A stretch of 41,307 nt of DNA, taken from positions 1 through 41,307 of IMG/VR virus record IMGVR_UViG_3300010366_000007; one strand, 5' to 3'. Under the pieces are notes generated by a model, which was not told the origin of the DNA, did no database searches, and worked only from the letters and a program-made list of their open reading frames with translations. Below, one piece after another: positions 4,125 to 38,258 of this stretch. This stretch comes from a virus. Taxonomy: Duplodnaviria > Caudoviricetes. The position numbers and the translations under genes are program-made. How positions within the stretch are numbered: position 1 is the first letter of the stretch; each line of letters starts with the position of its first letter.

Positions 4125-4438
4125 GGGTTCAGGTCCTCGACTGGCTTGTGTGTCCTGAACTGCCGGTGGATCAGGTCCACGCCGTAGTCGAGGCGCTTCT
4201 TGGGGATATTCGGGTACTTGCGCTGCATGGCGTCCACGGCGCGGCGCTTGAGGGCCCGCCAGTCCCTGGCCTGGACCAGGGCGTGGCACATGGCGCAGCT
4301 GGCCCAGTCGCCCCTGGAGCGACCCACAACGGTGCCGTCCAGCAGGGTGGCCTGGAAGCTCTCGCAGTTCTCCAGGAAGCGCGGCTCCACGTCGCTGCAA
4401 AAATCGCAGCAAGGAAACGGGCTTACTCGGACTTCCAT
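4121..4438 (-). CDS. Zn-finger-like hypothetical protein (CDFC ... CAMC)
   Basis: GGAGG SD before ATG at 4438; two CxxC pairs. Confidence 0.7.
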   Translation of the reverse strand: MEVRVSPFPCCDFCSDVEPRFLENCESFQATLLDGTVVGRSRGDWASCAMCHALVQARDWRALKRRAVDAMQRKYPNIPKKRLDYGVDLIHRQFRTHKPVEDLNP

Positions 4439-4815
4439 CGTGTCCTCCACAATGCACTGGTCCGATCCCCGCCAACCCCTACGCCGCGCTTGAGGTTCTG
4501 GCTGCGTGTCGCGGGCAGCAAATGCTCGGGACGAACGCACGCGCGGTTCCGACACAAATGGTCCAGGTCGATCTCTCGCGGGAGCGGAAAGAAGAACACT
4601 TCTTCCCAAAGCCAGCGGTGCGCTAGCAGGTCGCGCCGGTGATACTTGCCTCCATCCGTGTAGTGCCCGTAGCCGTTGGAATAAAGGGCGGCCGTCCAGT
4701 TCCAGCACCCGGTCTGCATGTCGCACACGACTTTGGACATGAAACGTTCGGGGGCTTCGCAGACCTCGTACGGCACGTCACAAACTGGATACTCAGCGAC
4801 GCGAACCTCAGGCAC
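4423..4815 (-). CDS. HNH homing endonuclease
   Basis: GCWNWT..GYG..AHR..DHLCRNRACVRPEHL..T.SQN HNH signature; likely GTG start at 4815. Confidence 0.85.
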   Translation of the reverse strand: MPEVRVAEYPVCDVPYEVCEAPERFMSKVVCDMQTGCWNWTAALYSNGYGHYTDGGKYHRRDLLAHRWLWEEVFFFPLPREIDLDHLCRNRACVRPEHLLPATRSQNLKRGVGVGGDRTSALWRTRWKSE

Positions 4816-5143
4816 TGGCTCGCCTCCTGGGTCGCCCCACCGGGCCCTTGACCACCGACACCCCCTGGCTGCGGATGTCCACCAGCTGGCAGTAGATCTT
4901 GATGGAGCCATCGGGCTCGTCTACGGCGGTGAAGCTGCGGCTGTAGCCAGCCTTCCTGAGCCGTTCGGCCATGCCGTTGCGCATGCGCTTGAATTCCTGC
5001 TGGTTGCTGGCCTTGATGACCAGCACCTTGCCCTGCTGGTGGGCTTCCATGACCTGGTCGGCCAGCCGCGTCCAGACACCCTGCGCGGCGTGGACCATCC
5101 CGTGCGGGATCTCGCTGGGGTCGACGCTTCCAACAACTTCCAT
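4808..5143 (-). CDS. Hypothetical DNA-binding protein with C-terminal AT-hook-like GRPRRR
   Basis: AAGGAGG SD, TGATG coupling, basic C-terminal tail. Confidence 0.7.
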   Translation of the reverse strand: MEVVGSVDPSEIPHGMVHAAQGVWTRLADQVMEAHQQGKVLVIKASNQQEFKRMRNGMAERLRKAGYSRSFTAVDEPDGSIKIYCQLVDIRSQGVSVVKGPVGRPRRRASA

Positions 5144-24375: not shown

Positions 24376-27300
24376 ATGCCCGGACTTCCCGACGTCGACC
24401 AGACTAGCTGGGACGACTTCTCGGCTAATCGGTGGTTTCAGCAGACCTCCGATCAGATCAACAGCTTGAGCCAGATGCCGCTGGCGCCAGGGCTGGGGTT
24501 CCTTTCCAACTCGTCAGCGATGATCAATTCGCTGCAGATCCCGACCCCGCCGCCGATCCAGCCGCCGGCGATGCCGCAGATACCCCAGATCACGCTGCCG
24601 CCGCTGCCCACGCCCACGCCGGCCCCCGCGCCAGCGCCGCCGCAACCACCAGCACCGCAGCCAGCACCGGCGGCTCCCATGCTGCCACCCCTCGGGCTGC
24701 CTCCGTCGCCAGCACCGCTCCCTCCCGAGCAAGCCCCGGCGCCGGAGGCAGCACCCGCCGGCCCGGTGCCGATGGTGCCCACGGTTCCGACGTTGCCGAC
24801 CGTGCCCACGGTGCAGATTCCAGACCAGACCCAACCGTCGATCTTCGCCCCGACGCAGCCCAAGCCGCCGGCGCAGAGTCCGTTCGGCGGCGAGGCCAAC
24901 GGCCCGTTCGCGCCGACCACGCCGGCTATCACGCCTCCCGCGACACCTAACCTGTCGCAACCGGCGCCGGCCAATTTCGATCCCAACGCGCCGGCGATGC
25001 GGGCAGTGAATGCTGCCCCAGCTGGCGATCTCCAGAACTACGCGCGTCAGGCCGCCCAGCGCGCGGGCATCAATCCCGAGATCTTTGCGGCTCAGATCCA
25101 GCAGGAGTCGGGGTTCAACCCCAACGCTGGCTCGTCGGCGGGCGCCCAGGGCATCGCCCAGATCGTGCCCCAGTACCACCCTGGCGTGAATCCGCTGGAT
25201 CCCAGGGCCGCGCTGGATTACGCAGCGAACCTCGACCGCAAGCTGTTGGACCAGTACGGGGGCGATTGGCAAAAAGCGCTGATTGCCTACAACGGTGGTG
25301 GTGGCGCGGTAGCCGCGTGGGACCGTGGCGAGCCGTACGGCGAGTCGCAGACCTACGTCTCGCAGATTCTGGGTACGAGCCGCCCTAATCAGAATGCTGG
25401 CCAGTCGGCCCAACAAGCTCCGAGTGGACTGACCACCGGCCCAGCCGACGACGCGGGCCGCATCTTTCCACTCACGGTCAAGCCCACCAACGCACCGTCT
25501 GCCACGTATCACTCGCAGGGAGGCTCGGACCTGATGGCGCCGCGCGGCACGCCCGTGGCGGCGATGCAGAGCGGCAAGGTGGTGGAGGTTTTCCAGGACA
25601 AGGGTGATCACCAGTTCGGCGGCAATGCCGTGTTGATCCACGGCAACGACGGACTGGATTACTACTACGCCCACTTTGACCAGCCGACGTCCCTTCACAT
25701 TGGCGATCAGGTCCAGGCTGGTCAGCAGATTGGTCTGGTGGGCAACTCCGGCAATGCCTACAAGGACGGCAAGGGCGAAACCCACCTCCACATCGGTATT
25801 GGCCACGGCATCTCGGACGGTGTGGGCTCTGAGGGCGGCCTGGGACTCGACTACAACGCCCAGTCCCTGCTGGCCGATCTGGAGAAGGGCGTGGGCGAGC
25901 AACCTGCCAGAACCACAGCCACGGCAGGTGCCCCGTCCGCACCAGCGCCCACGATTGCGGACCTAGACAACACGCAACGGGCGTTGAGTAACGGGCTGAC
26001 GAGTCGGCCAGCTGGGTCTGCCATCCCGCCGACGGACCAGATCCCGCGCCAGGCGATGACGCAGTTCGGCGTCCAGCAACCCAGTGTCACGCCTAGCGAG
26101 GACCAGAATCCCTGGTCGGACCTGGGCAACGTCATCAGCGGCGCCATCCAGCGCGCGGTGAGTGGCATCACCGGCGGTATGGGACCCCCAGGCCCGCCAG
26201 GTGGACCTCCAGGCGACCGCCGGCGCGAGGAAGACCAGCAGCGGCAGGACCAGTTCTCACCCGATACGGGTGATATCGGCACCAGCGACTTCCGCAACCT
26301 GAGCGCCGACCAGATCGACGCCCTGTTCCGCAACCCGGTCACGGGCGAGCCCGGTGCCATCCAGCAGGCCACTGGCTTGTACACCACCCCGCCCAGGGAC
26401 CTGAAGGAAGCCGCCGACCGAGCGTTGGCAGACATCCAGCGGCGCGGGATCCCACTGCCTGGCCCGGGCGGCTCGATCAGCTTCCTCCAGCCAGGCCGTA
26501 GCCTGCGCGAATTGAACCCGCTCAGCAAGGGGTCCGAGCCCACCGTCCTGGAAGACATCCTGTCTGGCGTGCCCGGCGTGCTGGGTGGGATTGCCCGCGC
26601 CGACGAGCAGGGCGGCACCATCATCAACCCGCTCCGCTCCGCTGCTGCCGGTGCGGCCGAGGGGGCCATCGACACCGCGAGGCTGAGCGCCGAAAACCTC
26701 GCCAAAGGCCTCGAGCGCAACCGGATCATGCAGGCCTGGGACTGGTTCGTCCGCAACTATTCCGACCGCAACGTCGACCTGAACCACGTCGCGGAAGACT
26801 TCGCCAGACGCCTGGGCCGACCGCTGACCGATGACGAGAACGCGCAGGTGCTCGCGCGCGTCGACCCCACCCACCAGTCGAACGTGGCCATCGAAAACGC
26901 ATTGGGCAGTGCCATGCGCGACGTGCCCAACAAGCTCCAGCAGACGCTCCAGGATTACATCCGCGACGAGACCGACAACTCCATCGGGGAGGGGCTGGCT
27001 AGCCGCGCCGAGAGCGCGTTCATGGACCAGGGCATCGACAAGGGCACCCAGCGCGCCATGGACGAGGCCAACCAGATGCTCCAGGACGCGCAGCAGGCCC
27101 ACGCCCAGGCACTGGCCGACCAGCGCGCGGTGGACCTGGGTGTGCATCGTACCGCGCAGTCCCAGCAGCTAAACTTCGCTGGCCAGCGGGTGCGCAACGC
27201 CGAGCAGGCCGTCTCCGACGCGGAGGAAGTTGCCAGGGACGCGGCAGCCCGCCACGCCCGCGAGCGGACGCTGAACGGCCCCCAGGGCGAACTGGTGCGG

Positions 27301-30297
27301 CGCCCCGAGCAGCGCGACCTGATCATCGCCCAGTCCGACGCGAAGCGAGCCAACGCAGCCTACTCGCGCCTGTTCGCGCGGAGTGACCGCATCCCGATCC
27401 AGCCGACCGGCACCAGCAACGCCGTCCGTGCCCAGTACGAGCGGCAGCTGGCCAGCATGGCGCGCCAGGTGGGCTACGCCGAGGACCGGGTGAGCCGCCT
27501 CCAGCAGGCGCTGGGCGAAAACGTCGCTAGTCGCGGCGCGGCCGTGGAAGGCCGTGCGGCTCAGGCGGCTCGGGCCGCGCAGGAAGCCTCGCGCGTAGCT
27601 CCGACGCCCGAGCTAGCTGCTGCCAGGGTGCGCCTGCGCTACGAGCAGGCCAACCTGGATCGTCTCCAGGCAGCCAAGGCGCGCGGCCAGCAAGGCCTGG
27701 TGGACGACCTCGCCCGCGCGTTCCAGAAGGTGCAGAAGGCTCAGCGTGACGTCACCCAGGCCGAGGCCGACCTGCCTGCGGCCGCCAAAGCCCAGGGCTG
27801 GGCACTCAAGACCGGGCGCCTGTACGGCGGACGGACCTGGGACGAGGTGCAGGCCAGCATGCAGCGCATGCAGGACCAGTTCAAGAACGATCCCGAGACG
27901 TGGGGCAAGTTCCAGAACGTCAAGTCTGCGCTCCAGGACTTCCGCAAGCAGATGCTCCAGGAAGACGTCGACTCTGGCTTGATCCCGCAGGAAGCAGCCG
28001 ACGGGATGATGGACACCTTCGACATGTGGACCCCCAGCCGCCAGCTGAAGTACCTGGCAGAGGAGGGGCCGGGCGGCTTGCCGCGCGGCAACAAGCTCAA
28101 CGTCAACTCCAACGGCTACAAGTCCTATACCGCCGAGGGTTCGAGCGGCGAACTCCAGAACCCCATCGACGCCTTCATCCAGTACGCCCAGAGTCACTAT
28201 GACCGTGTCGCCAAAAACGACGCTTTCAACGCGGTGGTTGACGCCCAGGGCGGACCCGGTGGAGCGCTGCGGCGCATTGCCGACAACATGCAGGAGTACA
28301 TCGACGCCAAGGGCGGCCTGCTCCACCCGGACTACAAGCCCAGGATTGGAGACGGCGAGCGCAAGCTGACGGGCTTTATCGACGGCAAGAAGCAGGAGTA
28401 CATCACCGACAACCCGGCCCTCCACGCGGCCATCGAGAACGTCCAGGCTGGCGACCACCCGATCATCAAGGTGCTACGTCCGCTGGCCCACCTGACACGA
28501 GAGACGGCCGTATCTCGCAACCCGCTCTGGTTGGCAGCCAACTCCCTGAGTGATGCATTCGGCTATGGCATGCGCACCACGAAAGCGAGCCCCAGCCAGC
28601 TGCTCAACCTGGGCCCAGCGGCACTCACCGCAGCGATGACGGATCCCAACGACCCCGAGCGGGAGGACAAGATCAAGGCTGCGCTGGTTGCGGGTGTCGG
28701 CTCGCGCGCGCTGATCGGCAATCGCCTGGGCCTGGGTCCGAGTGCCACGCGCGAGTTCATGCTGGCCTACGGTGATGTGCTGCGGGGCTTGGGCAGCGGA
28801 CGTATGACGGGCGAGGGTGTCCAGGAGTTGTGGCGGCGCGGTGGTGGCATGCGCGGCGGCGGCTACGCCGGCTATGGACCAAAGGCCGCCGAGGAGTACC
28901 TCCAGCAGCTGACCAAGAACCGCGCGTACAGCGTGCGCAATCTGAAGGATCTGCGCGATCTGTTCAACGACGCCATCCTGTTTGGCTGGAACAAAGCCCT
29001 GGGCGACCGCTTCGAGCAGGCGCCGCGCGTGGCGATGATGCGCCTGCGGGACCAGCAGGGCTTCTCTCCGCTGCGTTCGATGATTGCCGCCCGCGATGCG
29101 TCGATTGACTTCGACCGGGGCGGCAACTTTGTCCGTGCGCTCAACTCCGCTATCCCGTTCCTCAATGCCAGCGCCCAGGGCGGCGCCCAGCTGGGGCGTC
29201 TGGTGCGAGATGCCGGACCGGCGCTTGCCTTCGCGGGCACCAGCCTGGTCGGCATTCCCACCGCGCTGGCGGACATCTACAACTACTCGGATCCGCAGCG
29301 GGAGGACGACTACAACAACGTCCCCGACTACATCAAACGCCAGGGCCCGGTGTTGATGCGCCCAGGCGAAGCGCCGCGTGACGCCAACGGCAACCGCGTG
29401 CCGCAGTACCTCCAATTCAACACCCGTGAGTTCTCACCGTTTGCCATCGCCGCCCACGAGGCGGTCAAGCGTGCGCTGGGCAAGGGCACGCCGCGCAACG
29501 CTGCGCAGATCATGCAGGACATCGCCCTCCAGGAGCTTCCCGGCGGCCTGATGGGCAGTCCATCCGAGACACTGAGTTCGGTGTTGCCAGCTGGTTTCGG
29601 CACGGCCTACCAGCTATCCCAGAACCGCGACCTGTACCGTGACGCCAGCATCGCCAACCAGTACAGCGACGAGTCGGCCTCCAATGTGGGCAAGGCCCTG
29701 GCACCGCTGCTGGAGAACATCATCACCCAGGTACCGGGCCAGTCGGCCGACCGCATCCGTCCCTCGCAGGTCGACTTCGCCATCAAGGACGCCTTCAACG
29801 GGCTGGGTCAGACCGGCCTCAACATCACCGACCAGCTGACTGGGCGCGCGGCGCGCGTGCCGGGAGCGGCCAGCAACATCCCGCTGGTCGGCGGCGCGGT
29901 CGGCCGCTTTGTACGCGGTACTGGTGGCCAGAACTGGCAGGACGTGCAGGCCCCGGAGGCGATGCTGGCGCCCGACATCCGCCGCAACCTGCGCTCGCTG
30001 GGTGGGTCCACGGCCTACTACGAGCCGTCAGCGGTGCCGTCCACCTACCAGCGCGTGCCGCTGCGCCAGGCCGAGCAGGTCCAGTACCAGCGCCTGACCA
30101 ACCAGTATCTCGATCAGTACATGCGGCGGATGATGACGCGCAGCGGCTGGGACCGCAGCGACACGGTGCGGGAGAAGTTGATCTCGGCGGCGATGGACGC
30201 CGCGCGGAAGAAGGCCGGCGGCGAAGTGATCCGTCAGATTCGCGCGAGTGGCAGCAACCTGCACGAGCGCATGAAGCAGCAGTCATCGGCGCTCTGA
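24376..30297 (+). CDS. Large internal virion/ejection protein with SLT transglycosylase, M23 peptidase and LPD38-like C-terminus
   Basis: QESGFNPNA.SSAGAQGIAQ..AYNGG (SLT); H...SDL..YYAH..HLHIG (M23); IDFDRGG..LNSAIPFLNASAQG and VPDYIKR (LPD38-like). Confidence 0.85.
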   Translation: MPGLPDVDQTSWDDFSANRWFQQTSDQINSLSQMPLAPGLGFLSNSSAMINSLQIPTPPPIQPPAMPQIPQITLPPLPTPTPAPAPAPPQPPAPQPAPAAPMLPPLGLPPSPAPLPPEQAPAPEAAPAGPVPMVPTVPTLPTVPTVQIPDQTQPSIFAPTQPKPPAQSPFGGEANGPFAPTTPAITPPATPNLSQPAPANFDPNAPAMRAVNAAPAGDLQNYARQAAQRAGINPEIFAAQIQQESGFNPNAGSSAGAQGIAQIVPQYHPGVNPLDPRAALDYAANLDRKLLDQYGGDWQKALIAYNGGGGAVAAWDRGEPYGESQTYVSQILGTSRPNQNAGQSAQQAPSGLTTGPADDAGRIFPLTVKPTNAPSATYHSQGGSDLMAPRGTPVAAMQSGKVVEVFQDKGDHQFGGNAVLIHGNDGLDYYYAHFDQPTSLHIGDQVQAGQQIGLVGNSGNAYKDGKGETHLHIGIGHGISDGVGSEGGLGLDYNAQSLLADLEKGVGEQPARTTATAGAPSAPAPTIADLDNTQRALSNGLTSRPAGSAIPPTDQIPRQAMTQFGVQQPSVTPSEDQNPWSDLGNVISGAIQRAVSGITGGMGPPGPPGGPPGDRRREEDQQRQDQFSPDTGDIGTSDFRNLSADQIDALFRNPVTGEPGAIQQATGLYTTPPRDLKEAADRALADIQRRGIPLPGPGGSISFLQPGRSLRELNPLSKGSEPTVLEDILSGVPGVLGGIARADEQGGTIINPLRSAAAGAAEGAIDTARLSAENLAKGLERNRIMQAWDWFVRNYSDRNVDLNHVAEDFARRLGRPLTDDENAQVLARVDPTHQSNVAIENALGSAMRDVPNKLQQTLQDYIRDETDNSIGEGLASRAESAFMDQGIDKGTQRAMDEANQMLQDAQQAHAQALADQRAVDLGVHRTAQSQQLNFAGQRVRNAEQAVSDAEEVARDAAARHARERTLNGPQGELVRRPEQRDLIIAQSDAKRANAAYSRLFARSDRIPIQPTGTSNAVRAQYERQLASMARQVGYAEDRVSRLQQALGENVASRGAAVEGRAAQAARAAQEASRVAPTPELAAARVRLRYEQANLDRLQAAKARGQQGLVDDLARAFQKVQKAQRDVTQAEADLPAAAKAQGWALKTGRLYGGRTWDEVQASMQRMQDQFKNDPETWGKFQNVKSALQDFRKQMLQEDVDSGLIPQEAADGMMDTFDMWTPSRQLKYLAEEGPGGLPRGNKLNVNSNGYKSYTAEGSSGELQNPIDAFIQYAQSHYDRVAKNDAFNAVVDAQGGPGGALRRIADNMQEYIDAKGGLLHPDYKPRIGDGERKLTGFIDGKKQEYITDNPALHAAIENVQAGDHPIIKVLRPLAHLTRETAVSRNPLWLAANSLSDAFGYGMRTTKASPSQLLNLGPAALTAAMTDPNDPEREDKIKAALVAGVGSRALIGNRLGLGPSATREFMLAYGDVLRGLGSGRMTGEGVQELWRRGGGMRGGGYAGYGPKAAEEYLQQLTKNRAYSVRNLKDLRDLFNDAILFGWNKALGDRFEQAPRVAMMRLRDQQGFSPLRSMIAARDASIDFDRGGNFVRALNSAIPFLNASAQGGAQLGRLVRDAGPALAFAGTSLVGIPTALADIYNYSDPQREDDYNNVPDYIKRQGPVLMRPGEAPRDANGNRVPQYLQFNTREFSPFAIAAHEAVKRALGKGTPRNAAQIMQDIALQELPGGLMGSPSETLSSVLPAGFGTAYQLSQNRDLYRDASIANQYSDESASNVGKALAPLLENIITQVPGQSADRIRPSQVDFAIKDAFNGLGQTGLNITDQLTGRAARVPGAASNIPLVGGAVGRFVRGTGGQNWQDVQAPEAMLAPDIRRNLRSLGGSTAYYEPSAVPSTYQRVPLRQAEQVQYQRLTNQYLDQYMRRMMTRSGWDRSDTVREKLISAAMDAARKKAGGEVIRQIRASGSNLHERMKQQSSAL

Positions 30298-32854: not shown

Positions 32855-33598
32855 ATGCAGCCTCAACAACCAGAAGCTCCTTCAGACGCGCAGGCCCCTG
32901 CGGATACCTCCTCGCAGCCAGCGGCTTCTGAGCGGAGCGAAGCTCCTTCGCAGAACACTTCCTGGCTCCAGCGCCTCTGGCGCGGCAGGCGAGCGGGCGA
33001 GGAGGAGCAGGACTCCAATCAGGAACCAGCAGCGACCGGGCAGGCGTCCCAGATCACCCTGAGCCAGGATGAGCTTGATAGGCGGGTCCAGGCCGAGACC
33101 GACCGGCGCGAGCAGAAGCGCCTCCAGCAAGCCAATGCTGAGCGGCGACGCAAGCTGCGCGACGAGGATCCCTGGGCGTACGCCGAAGAGGAACGCAACG
33201 CCGAGCAGCACGCCATGTCTGACCAGCAGGTCTCAGGCATGTTCGGCCAGATCGGCGCGACGCATGATCGGTACACCCTCGATCCGCTGGTGCAGTCTCT
33301 ACCGGAGGCCGAGCGCAACCGCATCCTGGCGATGCAGGGCGCGGGCGCCGGGCTGGATGGCCGCAAGCTGATCGTGACCGAGGGCCTCAAGGCTCTCGAA
33401 AAGCACTGGAAAGAGGAAGGCGCCAGAGACGCCGAGGCCAAGCTTCGGCGCAATCAAGCCTTCCGTAAGCAAGTCTTGAGTGAGTTCCGCAGGGGTGTTT
33501 CCGAGCCGGAGTTCTTCGGCGGCGGGGCACCGTCTGCGGGCGACCGAAGTGTCAGCGATCTGCTGCGGGGAAACATGCGTCAGCACCGCAGCGCATAG
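32855..33598 (+). CDS. Capsid scaffolding protein
   Basis: Acidic N-terminus, LSQDELDRRVQ coiled coil, C-terminal VSDLLRG; upstream of the capsid gene. Confidence 0.7.
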   Translation: MQPQQPEAPSDAQAPADTSSQPAASERSEAPSQNTSWLQRLWRGRRAGEEEQDSNQEPAATGQASQITLSQDELDRRVQAETDRREQKRLQQANAERRRKLRDEDPWAYAEEERNAEQHAMSDQQVSGMFGQIGATHDRYTLDPLVQSLPEAERNRILAMQGAGAGLDGRKLIVTEGLKALEKHWKEEGARDAEAKLRRNQAFRKQVLSEFRRGVSEPEFFGGGAPSAGDRSVSDLLRGNMRQHRSA

Positions 33599-34124
33599 GA
33601 GGGTTCAGACAATATCTCGATACGCAAGGCCGTTCCGTATTCGCCAAAGTACGTTGCGTGAGACACCAAGCTGGGTAGCGAACTGATGATCGTTGCCTGG
33701 GGGCGTGACTCGGACAAGGCGCACTTGATCTGCAGTCAGCTTGCGTTGTGTGAGTTTCAGCATGCGATTGCGCGATGCGGCATGGGCTTGATTCCGGGAA
33801 TGGGCGACCCATTCAAGATTGACGACTCGGTTGTCAGTCTTGTCGAGGTTGATGTGATTCACCTCGAATCGAGGGCCAGGTCTGCTTGGCAAGAACGCTT
33901 CAGCGACCAGCGCGTGGATGTACTTCCGCTGTTTGCGTCGAGGAATGTCGGCAAGTGTGATCTGCACATACCCCTTTCCGCCTCTGAAACCAACCAACAC
34001 CTTCTTCCGTCGGTAGCTGTAGACGTTGCCCGCGTCAGAAATGGCGTAGAAGCTCTCCCAGCCGACGATTGGTATCCATCTCTCCACAGTAAGGCATTGT
34101 ATGCCTGAAGCAAGTTAGGAGGGT
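33596..34124. mobile_element. HNH insertion bounded by 9-bp direct repeats TAGGAGGGT
   Basis: TAGGAGGGT at 33596-33604 and 34116-34124; lower-GC insert; the HNH stop abuts the left repeat. Confidence 0.7.
33605..34087 (-). CDS. NUMOD4-HNH homing endonuclease with C-terminal HTH, antisense to the late operon
   Basis: ERWIPIVGWE.FYAISDAGNVYS (NUMOD4); HALVAEAFL..EVNHINLDKTDNRVVNLEW (HNH). Confidence 0.9.
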   Translation of the reverse strand: MERWIPIVGWESFYAISDAGNVYSYRRKKVLVGFRGGKGYVQITLADIPRRKQRKYIHALVAEAFLPSRPGPRFEVNHINLDKTDNRVVNLEWVAHSRNQAHAASRNRMLKLTQRKLTADQVRLVRVTPPGNDHQFATQLGVSRNVLWRIRNGLAYRDIV

Positions 34125-34130
34125 AACTCT

Positions 34131-35141
34131 ACGCCCTATAATTCAGTTGCGGGCCGTGTCACCCCAGGCACGTCGCCGCTTATCCCCGAGGACGTCCAGA
34201 AGGAGATCGTCCAGTCCATCGTCGTCAAGAGTGCGGCCATGCAGCTGATGCCGCACGTGAACATGCGCCGCGCGCAGCAGCGCATCCCGGTCAACACCAC
34301 GCTGCCCACCGCCTACTGGCTCACTGGCGCCTCACTCGACGCCCGCGACCGGGGCATGAAGCAAACAACGTCAATGGCTTGGGACAACGTGTACTTAAAC
34401 GCAGAGGAGATCGCGGTGGTGCTGCCCATCGCCCAGGCCCTGCTCGATGACCTGGACTATGACTTCTGGACCCAGGTCAAGCCCAAGGTCACCGAGGCCT
34501 TCGGTCTCGCGTTGGACGACGCGATCTTCTTCGGCACCAACGCCCCGGCCAGCTTCCCCACGGCCATCGTCACCGCTGCCAACGCGGCAGGCAACCTCGT
34601 TGTCGCGGGCGCCTCGACGGTTGACTTCCTCGATGACGTCAACAACGCCATGGCCACCGTGGAAGCGGACGGTTTCGACGTCACCGGCTTCTGGGCCCGC
34701 CGCCAGGTCAAGGCCAAGCTGCGCGGCATGCGCGACACCACCAAGGGCTTCCTCATGTACGGCGACGACGTGGGGCCGCAAGACTCCGCCAACACTGGCA
34801 TGCTCTTCGGTGAGCCGATCATCTTCTCCAACGCGGGCTTTTCGAGCTTCGCCACGGGCGCGGCTGGCTACAGCATGATCGGCGGTCAGTGGGATCAGTC
34901 GATGCTCGCCATCCGCGAAGACATCTCGATGGACCTCTTTGACACTGGCGTGATCACCGATGCGGGCTCGCCGCCCGTGATCCAATTTAACTTGATGCAG
35001 CAGGACATGGTCGCCTTGCGGGTGATTGCCAGATTTGCCTGGGCGATTCCCAACCCGGTCAACCGCCAACAGCCCACGGCAGCCAGCAGATACCCCTTCT
35101 TTGTCGTCCAGCAGAAGGCAGCTACCGGCGGCGAGGGCTAA
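34131..35141 (+). CDS. HK97-fold major capsid protein; probable ACG start at 34131 (first ATG at 34239)
   Basis: Frame open from 34119; PYNS...PLIPEDVQKEIVQ N-terminus; AEEIAVVLPI..ALLDD, LDDAIFFGT, NLMQQDMVALRV capsid motifs. Confidence 0.88.
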   Translation, partial: TPYNSVAGRVTPGTSPLIPEDVQKEIVQSIVVKSAAMQLMPHVNMRRAQQRIPVNTTLPTAYWLTGASLDARDRGMKQTTSMAWDNVYLNAEEIAVVLPIAQALLDDLDYDFWTQVKPKVTEAFGLALDDAIFFGTNAPASFPTAIVTAANAAGNLVVAGASTVDFLDDVNNAMATVEADGFDVTGFWARRQVKAKLRGMRDTTKGFLMYGDDVGPQDSANTGMLFGEPIIFSNAGFSSFATGAAGYSMIGGQWDQSMLAIREDISMDLFDTGVITDAGSPPVIQFNLMQQDMVALRVIARFAWAIPNPVNRQQPTAASRYPFFVVQQKAATGGEG

Positions 35142-37148: not shown

Positions 37149-37417
37149 CGCGCGCCGAGCCCGTGGTCAATCGCAACCTGCTGGCTGGCACGCCCGGTCC
37201 GACCAGCTGGAACCAGGGACCACCGGGTCCTCCAGGTCCACAAGGTTTACCAGGTCCCCAGGGCATTCCTGGACCTGTTGGGCAGCAAGGAAGTCCGGGG
37301 CTACGAGGGAGCATGTGGTGGCAAGCGCAAGGTCCGCCGAGCGGGTCGCTTGCGGATGCGCTTCCACAAGACCTTTATCTCGATACGTTGACGGGAAACG
37401 TGTATGTCTTCAGCTGA
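37142..37417 (+). CDS. Short collagen-like protein
   Basis: Gly-X-Y run then GSMWW...[15 protein letters not shown]. Confidence 0.7.
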
Positions 37418-37625
37418 TAACAACAGCCGAGGCGAGCAATTCACGTACCCGTTGCGCTTGTTCAGTTGTGACGGCCCAGCGACGTATCACGCCAGTCTTG
37501 CTAGCGATTGGAAGACGTGTTGGGCGAAAGCCTGCCGCCGTCCAAATACTCCAGCGATCAGGATGATCCGCAGACATAGTCAGTTCTTCGGCCAAATCCC
37601 TCAACAAGACCCATTCACTGGTCAT
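37410..37625 (-). CDS. 71-aa antisense gene, possible HTH DNA-binding protein
   Basis: TTAGGAGGG SD 6 nt before ATG at 37625; [18 protein letters not shown]...; lower GC. Confidence 0.65.
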
Positions 37626-37640
37626 AGGAAGCCCTCCTAA

Positions 37641-38258
37641 ATGCCGTGGACTCAGATCAGCAACATCAAAGGTACGCCGGGAGCAACCGGTACTCAAGGG
37701 CCAAAGGGAGATCCGGGCGCTGCTGGTCTTCAGGGGCCACAGGGTAATCCGGGCGCGCCGGGTCCGCAGGGATTACCGGGTCCGCAGGGCGCACAGGGTG
37801 CCCAGGGGGCTACAGGTCCGCAGGGGGCTGCGGGGGCAACAGGCTCTCCGGGAGCGACAGGTGCTACTGGTAGTACGGGACCGCAAGGCATTCCTGGGTC
37901 AAAGTGGTACACAGGGAGTGGTGCTCCGCTCGGCGCCACCGGTCTTGTCGGTGACTGGTATCTTGACTCAGTTGTGGGCGACTACTACGAGAAGACCGGC
38001 CCGAGTGTCTGGACGTTGCGTGGGAACCTGCGCGGGGTGCAGGGCCCCCAGGGTGCCGCAGGCCCACAGGGTGCGCAGGGACCAACTGGCGCTGCTGGAG
38101 TTCAGGGACCCCAAGGCCCACAGGGTCCAGCCTGGACGCCAACCAAGTTCACCCTCACCGGCCGCAAGCACGCCATCCGCAGCCTGCCCTATGTGCTGGA
38201 CCAGCTGATCACGGGTCTGGCAAATCAGGGCTTCCTGACCGACAACACCACCACCTGA
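37641..38258 (+). CDS. Collagen-like fibre protein
   Basis: Long Gly-X-Y repeats interrupted by GSKWYTGSGAP..GDWYLD..GDYYEK..WTLRGNLRG. Confidence 0.85.
   Translation: MPWTQISNIKGTPGATGTQGPKGDPGAAGLQGPQGNPGAPGPQGLPGPQGAQGAQGATGPQGAAGATGSPGATGATGSTGPQGIPGSKWYTGSGAPLGATGLVGDWYLDSVVGDYYEKTGPSVWTLRGNLRGVQGPQGAAGPQGAQGPTGAAGVQGPQGPQGPAWTPTKFTLTGRKHAIRSLPYVLDQLITGLANQGFLTDNTTT

Follow-up and report, generated by a model that had tools for sequence, protein, structure and literature searches.

The window analysed here is the whole 41,307-nt stretch of IMG/VR record IMGVR_UViG_3300010366_000007, a complete 41.3-kb virus record, and the only public run found to hold it (X1) is a soil metagenome. Its major capsid gene very probably starts at an ACG codon at position 34131, as comparison with related genes indicates. 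The features at the start of this gene are as follows.

34101..34118, plus strand: in-frame mini open reading frame of 5 codons, ATG to TAG, with its stop inside the capsid Shine-Dalgarno (SD) sequence
34115..34123, plus strand: capsid SD, TTAGGAGGG, predicted pairing -10.7 kcal/mol
34124..34126, plus strand: TAA at -7..-5, holding the conserved A(-6) at 34125
34131..34133, plus strand: ACG, the capsid start codon inferred from sequence comparison
34131..35141, plus strand: major capsid protein gene, HK97 fold, 336 codons, identified by profile and structure matches
34239..34241, plus strand: first ATG of the frame, where the 300-aa database call (P0002) begins; likely to encode an internal Met

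The gene product is an HK97-fold major capsid protein of the 8ECI/8EDU group. Residues 17-307 match PF05065 (E 1.9e-28), residues 8-334 match phrog_10 (E 5.5e-41), Foldseek matches the protein to 8EDU (E 6e-26), and structural comparison to 8ECI gave Z 20.1 and a root-mean-square deviation of 6.2 with 273 aligned residues.

The capsid frame ends upstream at the TAG at 34116, and no in-frame ATG, GTG or TTG occurs between this stop and ATG 34239, which shares the frame of ACG 34131 and lies 36 codons from it. A 7-nt spacer separates the SD from the ACG. Pairing energies were computed against an anti-SD motif taken from general knowledge, and the value before ATG 34239 was -2.5 kcal/mol. A reading of the letters made earlier without database searches (the sequence-only reading) had noticed the strong SD 7 nt before the ACG, the want of an SD proper to ATG 34239 and the missing canonical codon between them, and all three are borne out. 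Contigs of run X1, possibly the source of the record and so not independent, have 0 differing letters over 33400-34221 at a depth of 12.5.

The same reading took the 36-codon extension with its LIPE segment for the capsid N-terminus, which agrees with the solved capsid of phage Bridgette (8ECI): residues 2-323 align with it, including PYN and LIPE (E 1.8e-63, 39% identity), and since this alignment begins at residue 2 the extra codons belong to the normal protein. Among 28 relatives with ACG, ATT, ATC or CTG at this position (hereafter non-canonical), codons 2-36 contain 0 stops, keep 80-86% amino-acid identity with more synonymous than non-synonymous differences, and are as conserved as the rest of the gene. 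A helix is predicted at residues 20-33, and the Met at 34239 is replaced by Leu in many relatives. By these comparisons, starting at ATG 34239 would remove a conserved N-terminus. Among the 120 best protein database matches, 47 are N-terminally short and begin at many different residues.

Start codons across the capsid family

Viral and metagenome collections were scanned, yielding 161 loci of more than 60% identity with a mappable N-terminus; 24 further loci were left out as fragments or because the N-terminal motif missed them. Collapsing on the first 200 coding bases gave 88 distinct sequences, the window included. In 88/88 the conserved Pro-Tyr-Asn is preceded by ATG or by a codon one base away from it (GTG 26, ATT 20, ACG 19, ATG 12, TTG 7, ATC 3 and CTG 1), so that 43/88 are non-canonical and 45/88 canonical. 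A first census had found such a codon in 55/55 sequences at the start codon and in 1, 7 and 3 of 55 at codons -1, -2 and -3, respectively. An in-frame canonical start upstream is missing from 42 of the 43 non-canonical loci. Non-AUG starts, which the sequence-only reading had proposed to look for in related capsid genes, are thus found in one part of the family but not in the other.

Eleven other genes from the same loci served as the control set. Their 419 starts comprise 342 ATG, 72 GTG, 1 TTG and 4 without a canonical codon, and because 415/419 are canonical the non-canonical start is specific to the capsid gene; relaxed initiation across the whole genome was ruled out on the same count. 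Two control genes, the homologue of window gene 36240 in locus L096 and that of 40399 in L026, lack a canonical codon in the vicinity; where the start should be, they have ATC preceded by an SD-like stretch, or CTG.

A quick tree of 85 rows, from which 3 intron-bearing rows were omitted, places 39 codon changes in the family and 20 changes between the canonical and non-canonical state; well-supported branches require at least 11 of these 20. A group I intron (Rfam RF00028) lies inside the capsid gene in the region of codons 16-23 at L044:2744-2993, an insertion at about 2750-2990 of L014 resembles it below threshold, and L207 has an early stop near codon 23. These three intron-type loci all have non-canonical starts.

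The weak codon is accompanied by a distinctive context. A(-6) is present in 42/43 non-canonical capsid starts, 16/45 canonical capsids and 112/415 control starts, and GG at -10/-9 occurs together with it in 42/43 of the non-canonical starts. Over 11 independent pairs, the A(-6) difference ran in the same direction in 6.2 on average and never in the opposite one (median p 0.03). The SD stands at a fixed spacing in 39/43 non-canonical loci, and one common site class takes in 30/43 of these and 0/45 of the canonical ones; TAG or TAA occupies -7..-5 in 10/11 loci that share the site class of the window. A(-6) is described as a positive determinant of initiation in E. coli (PMC6847099). With their fixed-spacing SD and A(-6), the non-canonical sites look built for reading, with the codon alone weakened. 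A stronger SD as general compensation was considered and rejected, the main clade having a median SD energy of -6.3 for both canonical and non-canonical starts (p 0.43); an extended or strong SD is found in the window (-10.7), the Bridgette group and four distant loci.

The Bridgette group consists of five Arthrobacter FA phages (Bridgette, ChuckDuck, Peas, Constance and PeggyLeg03), taken from nine named at the 95% level or above, with ATT directly before Pro-Tyr-Asn. An extended SD of -12.7 kcal/mol precedes this ATT, and the ATG used in the annotation, which lies 11 codons upstream, scores -1.9. Folding predicts a long hairpin that buries both SD and ATT and holds the annotated ATG in its 5' arm, together with an alternative upstream helix. 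The 8ECI chain has 327 residues with the Pro of PYN at 13, and 315 of them are modelled, with the model extending to residue 327; 315 is the count that an ATT start would give after Met removal, and the missing 12 may be the annotated residues that such a start leaves out. The annotated capsid start is likely 11 codons early at L273:865-900 (Bridgette, MH834603.1 gene 6) and in L274, L275, L283 and L284. No homology of the scaffold protein to the Bridgette scaffold was detected (probability 0.6%).

The scaffold-capsid gap in relatives and in the window

In most relatives the capsid start follows the scaffold stop at a distance of 27-75 nt, and a three-segment arrangement is predicted in this gap. 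The SD would lie in the 3' arm (segment 3) of a hairpin 2:3 whose 5' arm is segment 2, and in an alternative helix 1:2 segment 2 would pair with the region of the scaffold stop (segment 1). Hairpin 2:3 was stronger than the shuffled mean in 32 of the 36 loci run. In an alignment of 31 loci, 94.8% of helix 1:2 cells are paired (the first four pairs of the helix served as selection criteria), and 16 two-sided changes follow which stop codon is present; 0/500 shuffles reached as high a value and slid controls gave 21-63%. This test was relied on in place of a separate statistic for positions 6 to 9, which is biased by the selection of helices of at least 6 pairs. The helix is anchored in 37/61 short-gap loci, starting always at -4 to +9 from the scaffold stop, and it shifts past the stop in loci whose stop has moved.

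The effect of a ribosome was modelled by folding the 61 short-gap loci with the stop region blocked. The predicted cost of opening the SD and start rose by more than 1 kcal/mol in 41/61 and fell in 10/61. Median opening costs in the blocked state were 11.6, 17.2 and 18.0 kcal/mol for non-canonical, GTG and TTG loci, respectively, the GTG and TTG loci having a stiffer off state with the start codon often within the stem. A DNA-pattern scan for the hairpin motif returned 50 matches, 25 of which precede this capsid gene (13 ACG, 12 ATT); the other 25 are cassette-displaced copies or unrelated. Rfam 15 gave no match at gathering score for the scaffold-capsid element in the window, L015, L030 or L014, and in L044 it gave only the group I intron. 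An optional hairpin of 15-16 nt with a bulged U, possibly a protein-binding site, sits in the helix 1:2 loop of L015, L029, L032, L030, L009, L114 and others with longer gaps.

The gap of the window itself is filled by an endonuclease cassette and carries the following features.

32855..33598, plus strand: gene for a putative head scaffolding protein of 247 aa, immediately preceding the capsid region
33596..33604, plus strand: SD-like 9-mer overlapping the scaffold stop, an exact direct repeat of 34116-34124
33605..34087, minus strand: free-standing NUMOD4-HNH endonuclease gene between scaffold and capsid (PF07463, PF13392, phrog_59)
33612..33686, plus strand: frame of 24 codons that begins at ATA after the leftover SD (-11.9 kcal/mol), its TGA overlapping ATG 33686
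33686..34108, plus strand: open frame of 140 codons on the strand opposite the HNH gene, its end 22 nt short of the ACG, no Pfam match

The head scaffolding family phrog_2303 is matched by 8/25 family members (best E 2.8e-4), the window copy being without a match, and in the ESM Atlas the closest cluster that has a name is that of a scaffolding protein (0.89), a lead only. The HNH gene appears to be of the free-standing NUMOD4-HNH homing endonuclease type, given its NUMOD4 and HNH_3 domains, its intergenic place and its patchy occurrence among relatives. Its stop abuts the first copy of the 9-base direct repeat. This first copy is likely the former ribosome-binding site of the capsid gene, stranded by the HNH insertion; in L085, L101, L159, L178 and L192 the former site is likewise retained upstream of the cassette. 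An HNH gene occupies the gap in 13/88 family loci, and the new capsid start is non-canonical in 6/13. In L101 and L187 a plus-strand HNH gene took over the former capsid start site (ATT in L101, GTG in L187) and its stop lies 4 nt before the new capsid start, which is again ACG or ATT. In L243, L244, L245 and L252 the switch motif is followed by non-capsid sequence, an old site stranded by an HNH cassette as in L178 and L192.

A chain of plus-strand frames crosses the cassette of the window, from ATA 33612 through 33686-34108 to the 5-codon frame that ends 12 nt before the ACG. The TGA/ATG overlap at 33686 may possibly act as a ribosome relay, and the 140-codon frame is possibly filler that carries ribosomes across. 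Similar open frames in other cassettes end 4-41 nt before the capsid start or enter the start region. Antisense-stop codons number 8 against 44.9 expected in 13 minus-strand cassettes, 48 against 74.7 in window genes and 36 against 82.9 in HNH-like frames elsewhere, a mixed set (p about 0.003 against that last ratio, the cassettes not being independent). As far as sequence can tell, the open frames suit either ribosome delivery or simple avoidance of polarity. No sigma-70 promoter was found near the cassette. Further minus-strand HNH-like genes lie at 4426-4911 of the window and about 1.4-1.6 kb downstream of the capsid start in L006, L007, L010, L028, L034 and L067; those of the late region mark a second insertion hot spot.

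Explanations for the weak start codon

The explanation we favour is that the weak codon is a brake that ties capsid output to translation of the upstream scaffold region, and as a whole it stands evenly poised between right and wrong. The codon would keep free initiation low and so link capsid output to ribosome traffic over the scaffold region. In short-gap relatives helix 1:2 would free the SD, whereas a ribosome at the scaffold stop would free segment 2, letting 2:3 form and bury the SD, so that most capsid would come from messages on which the scaffold gene is not being translated. In GTG relatives the hairpin would be stiffer and take in the start codon, and in ACG or ATT relatives it would be weaker and joined to a weak codon; these are likely alternative ways of reaching one tight off state. 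The purpose may be to set the scaffold-to-capsid ratio. In the window the HNH cassette would have removed the switch and the ACG would have been kept, to be read by way of its strong SD and A(-6) and perhaps by ribosomes that end 12-22 nt upstream and re-initiate. What sequence comparison shows is the place of the codon and the range of forms it takes, the selection acting on codons 2-36, the restriction of the trait to the capsid gene, A(-6) and the covariation in helix 1:2; the two folds with their response to the ribosome are folding predictions. In its most complete form, a hitherto undescribed inverse-coupling device made of a three-segment RNA switch that senses ribosome occupancy at the scaffold stop and is tightened by a start codon that initiation factor IF3 rejects, from soil phages to Arthrobacter phages, the proposal is tentative and rather doubtful.

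Several observations weigh against this explanation. ACG belongs to a group of codons reported at 0.1-1% of AUG in E. coli (bioRxiv 10.1101/063800), and such a yield, for the protein most abundant in the virion, is the main difficulty if the host is no more permissive; AUU and AUA are reported to reach about 10-30% in S. aureus (PMC13009471). The host search gave distant matches only in a GTDB scan, and a Chloroflexota label on one protein of a 3.6-kb contig is too little to assign a host. The 12 residues that the 8ECI model leaves out could be disordered ones or lie within the chain, 7/7 other cultured relatives examined have an ordinary SD and ATG, and a clear non-canonical start (ATT, ATC or ACG) was seen in only 5/68 distant metagenomic loci, with 9 loci lacking the motif. 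The switch is absent from the window itself, an anchored helix from 24/61 short-gap loci, and blocking lowers the opening cost in the 10 loci given above. Local hairpins tend to gain when a competitor is blocked, and only 24/61 loci beat 29/30 shuffles; pooled covariation of helix 2:3, in mixed registers, was not above shuffles (137/500). The five short-gap ATG loci tested have weak structure (median 8.8) and no switch and 12/88 relatives use ATG, so the brake is dispensable in some lineages. The four nearest tree rows to the window are canonical (TTG, TTG, ATG, GTG), and recombination may account for, or inflate, the frequent codon switching.

Two alternatives deny that translation begins at the ACG. 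The protein might start elsewhere, at ATG 34239, by read-through of the TAG from ATG 34101, or after C-to-U editing of the ACG, and gene callers do pick 34239 (P0002), 47 of the top matches are short and an in-frame ATG is present at 34101. This is very improbable in view of the purifying selection on codons 2-36 and the helix predicted at 20-33, the scatter of residues at which the short calls begin, the poor SD of ATG 34101 (-2.7) and the absence of the mini-frame from L159 and L178, and because one editing rule cannot convert ATT, ATC or CTG to ATG. An error of sequencing or assembly, or an inactivating mutation private to this record, can hardly be credited. The sequence-only reading had named ATG in close relatives as a sign of such an error, and the nearest rows are indeed canonical, yet ACG stands at the same codon in 18 other distinct sequences, including L159 and L178 behind a related HNH cassette, and 24 more have ATT, ATC or CTG; the X1 contig, itself not independent, agrees, and the capsid gene is intact in a complete genome record. 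Initiation at the ACG, as that reading proposed, thus has strong comparative support from the census, the control genes, the Bridgette alignment and the SD energies.

The other alternatives accept the ACG and differ on its role. The sequence-only reading tied it to IF3 or a phage factor: capsid synthesis would depend on low IF3 activity, or on a factor that relaxes start checks late in infection. AUG, GUG and UUG are described as accepted by IF3 and other codons as repressed (PMC5499595), and the capsid sites keep SD spacing and A(-6) with the codon alone weakened, as an IF3-sensitive site would, in a common class found with non-canonical codons only. Against this, IF3-accepted codons occur in 45/88 relatives, interleaved on the tree, and other late genes lack the trait. 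The window holds no detected tRNA gene, and no initiation-factor-like family was found among its 65 open reading frames in Pfam or 39 in PHROGs, a weak negative as most frames are without any match. This link has found no direct support and is unlikely; the data point more to a cis-acting brake connected with scaffold-region translation. Plain positive coupling, in which ribosomes finishing the scaffold gene, an HNH frame or a filler frame begin again at the capsid start, where a weak codon is tolerated, so that no capsid is made without scaffold, would suit the frames that end shortly before or run into the start in HNH-bearing loci, the depletion of antisense stops in the 13 cassettes, the stop at -7..-5 in 10/11 sites of the window's class and the 10/61 loci in which blocking opens the SD. 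It is improbable too, because a ribosome at the stop is predicted to close the SD in 41/61 loci, HNH-like frames outside the gap are depleted as well, which polarity avoidance would also explain, and re-initiation yields at most one capsid per scaffold where capsid is needed in excess, according to PMC9894550. Tolerated drift, with a good SD and abundant late mRNA letting the codon wander without a regulatory role, would agree with seven codons, 39 tree changes and viable ATG relatives, and AUU mRNA is said in PMC5499595 to reach about half of AUG in competition extracts. Neighbouring genes should then drift too, and only 4/419 lack a canonical start; ATG makes up 12/88 capsid starts against 342/419 control starts; ACG, ATT and CTG are mutually two steps apart, yet ATG never occurs in their common context; and sites newly created by HNH insertion are non-canonical again in 6/13. 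Drift is accordingly a quite unlikely account.

Known systems and neighbouring features

In the ermC and cat translational attenuators, mutually exclusive helices form and a ribosome on an upstream segment exposes or hides the SD. The helices predicted in the capsid relatives would likewise be exclusive and chosen by an upstream ribosome. The leader peptide and inducer have no counterpart, the sensor here being the stop of the full-length scaffold gene (segment 1 at -4 to +9), and the predicted sign is opposite, with three segments and ribosome presence meaning off. Wyckoff and Casjens reportedly described translational autoregulation of the P22 scaffolding protein in 1985. In P22, scaffold-to-coat control is presented as post-transcriptional, with scaffold translation autoregulated and coat without enough scaffold forming aberrant shells (10.1101/2022.12.13.520362), and PMC9894550 calls control of this ratio unresolved. 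As described there, P22 control acts on the scaffold gene through a protein, whereas here a putative brake acts on the capsid start. In MS2 coat-to-replicase coupling (PMC9894550) and in the SD hairpins of T4 late and homing-endonuclease genes (PMC2988022), structure hides a start and ribosome movement or transcript context alters it; upstream translation or a late promoter opens those sites, whose starts are described as canonical, whereas closing is predicted in the capsid family and the codon is weak.

Among weak codons, infC (encoding IF3) with AUU or AUC and E. coli pcnB with AUU resemble the capsid genes as SD-led near-cognate starts that recur across a gene family (10.1101/063800, PMC5499595). 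infC is described with one codon type and feedback on its own product, whereas the capsid genes have seven codon forms, with ACG common, and encode a high-copy structural protein; nor is the family-wide conservation of infC matched, 45/88 capsids being canonical with 20 state changes on the tree. In S. aureus cvfC1, ccpN and citZ a weak codon is rescued by an extended SD (PMC13009471), and the Bridgette-type and four distant loci also have extended SDs, at -12 to -16 kcal/mol. Those are low-copy host genes, whereas the SD of main-clade capsids is no stronger than that of canonical relatives and sits in a hairpin. The Bridgette capsid (8ECI; 10.1101/2022.09.09.507160) shares the PYN N-terminus, near-cognate codon and SD-burying hairpin but differs at 39% identity and in being annotated from the upstream ATG, and the start codon goes unmentioned in the available part of that paper.

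Non-canonical starts, SD-hiding hairpins, ribosome-driven refolding and free-standing HNH genes are each already known singly, and the capsid start trait is a real, family-wide variation on known translational control. A literature search, made mostly without subscription journals, turned up no publication about phage capsid genes with non-canonical starts or about a switch of this type. Bacteria have few confirmed starts of that kind, and these mostly limit genes of low copy number, so their presence in half of a large capsid family is the opposite of what one would expect. If the favoured explanation is true, the most abundant virion protein is made from ACG, ATT, ATC or CTG, and the switch in relatives is a concrete, mutable candidate for setting the scaffold-to-coat ratio from one late message. 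Bridgette, cultured, with a solved capsid and the same anatomy, offers a system in which start, hairpin and IF3 dependence can be tested, with a soil bacterium that is harmless as the host. Gene callers shorten these capsids in the database, and in Bridgette they likely extend them.

Two further features lie outside the capsid region. A second TTAGGAGGG was said by the sequence-only reading to precede an ATG at 37625 at similar spacing; the spacing holds (6 nt), but both the SD (37632-37640) and the ATG are on the minus strand, where they head one open reading frame.

37410..37625, minus strand: 71-codon open reading frame behind the second TTAGGAGGG (37632-37640), no Pfam match

The start of this frame and that of the plus-strand collagen-like tail gene at 37641 face away from each other across 15 nt, and the SD of the tail gene looks folded into a small hairpin with the complement of the minus-strand SD, as judged by eye with no folding run. 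A protein of 1973 aa, encoded at 24376-30297 of the window, has PHROG matches of endolysin-like and metallopeptidase-like type and is likely an internal virion protein that is ejected.

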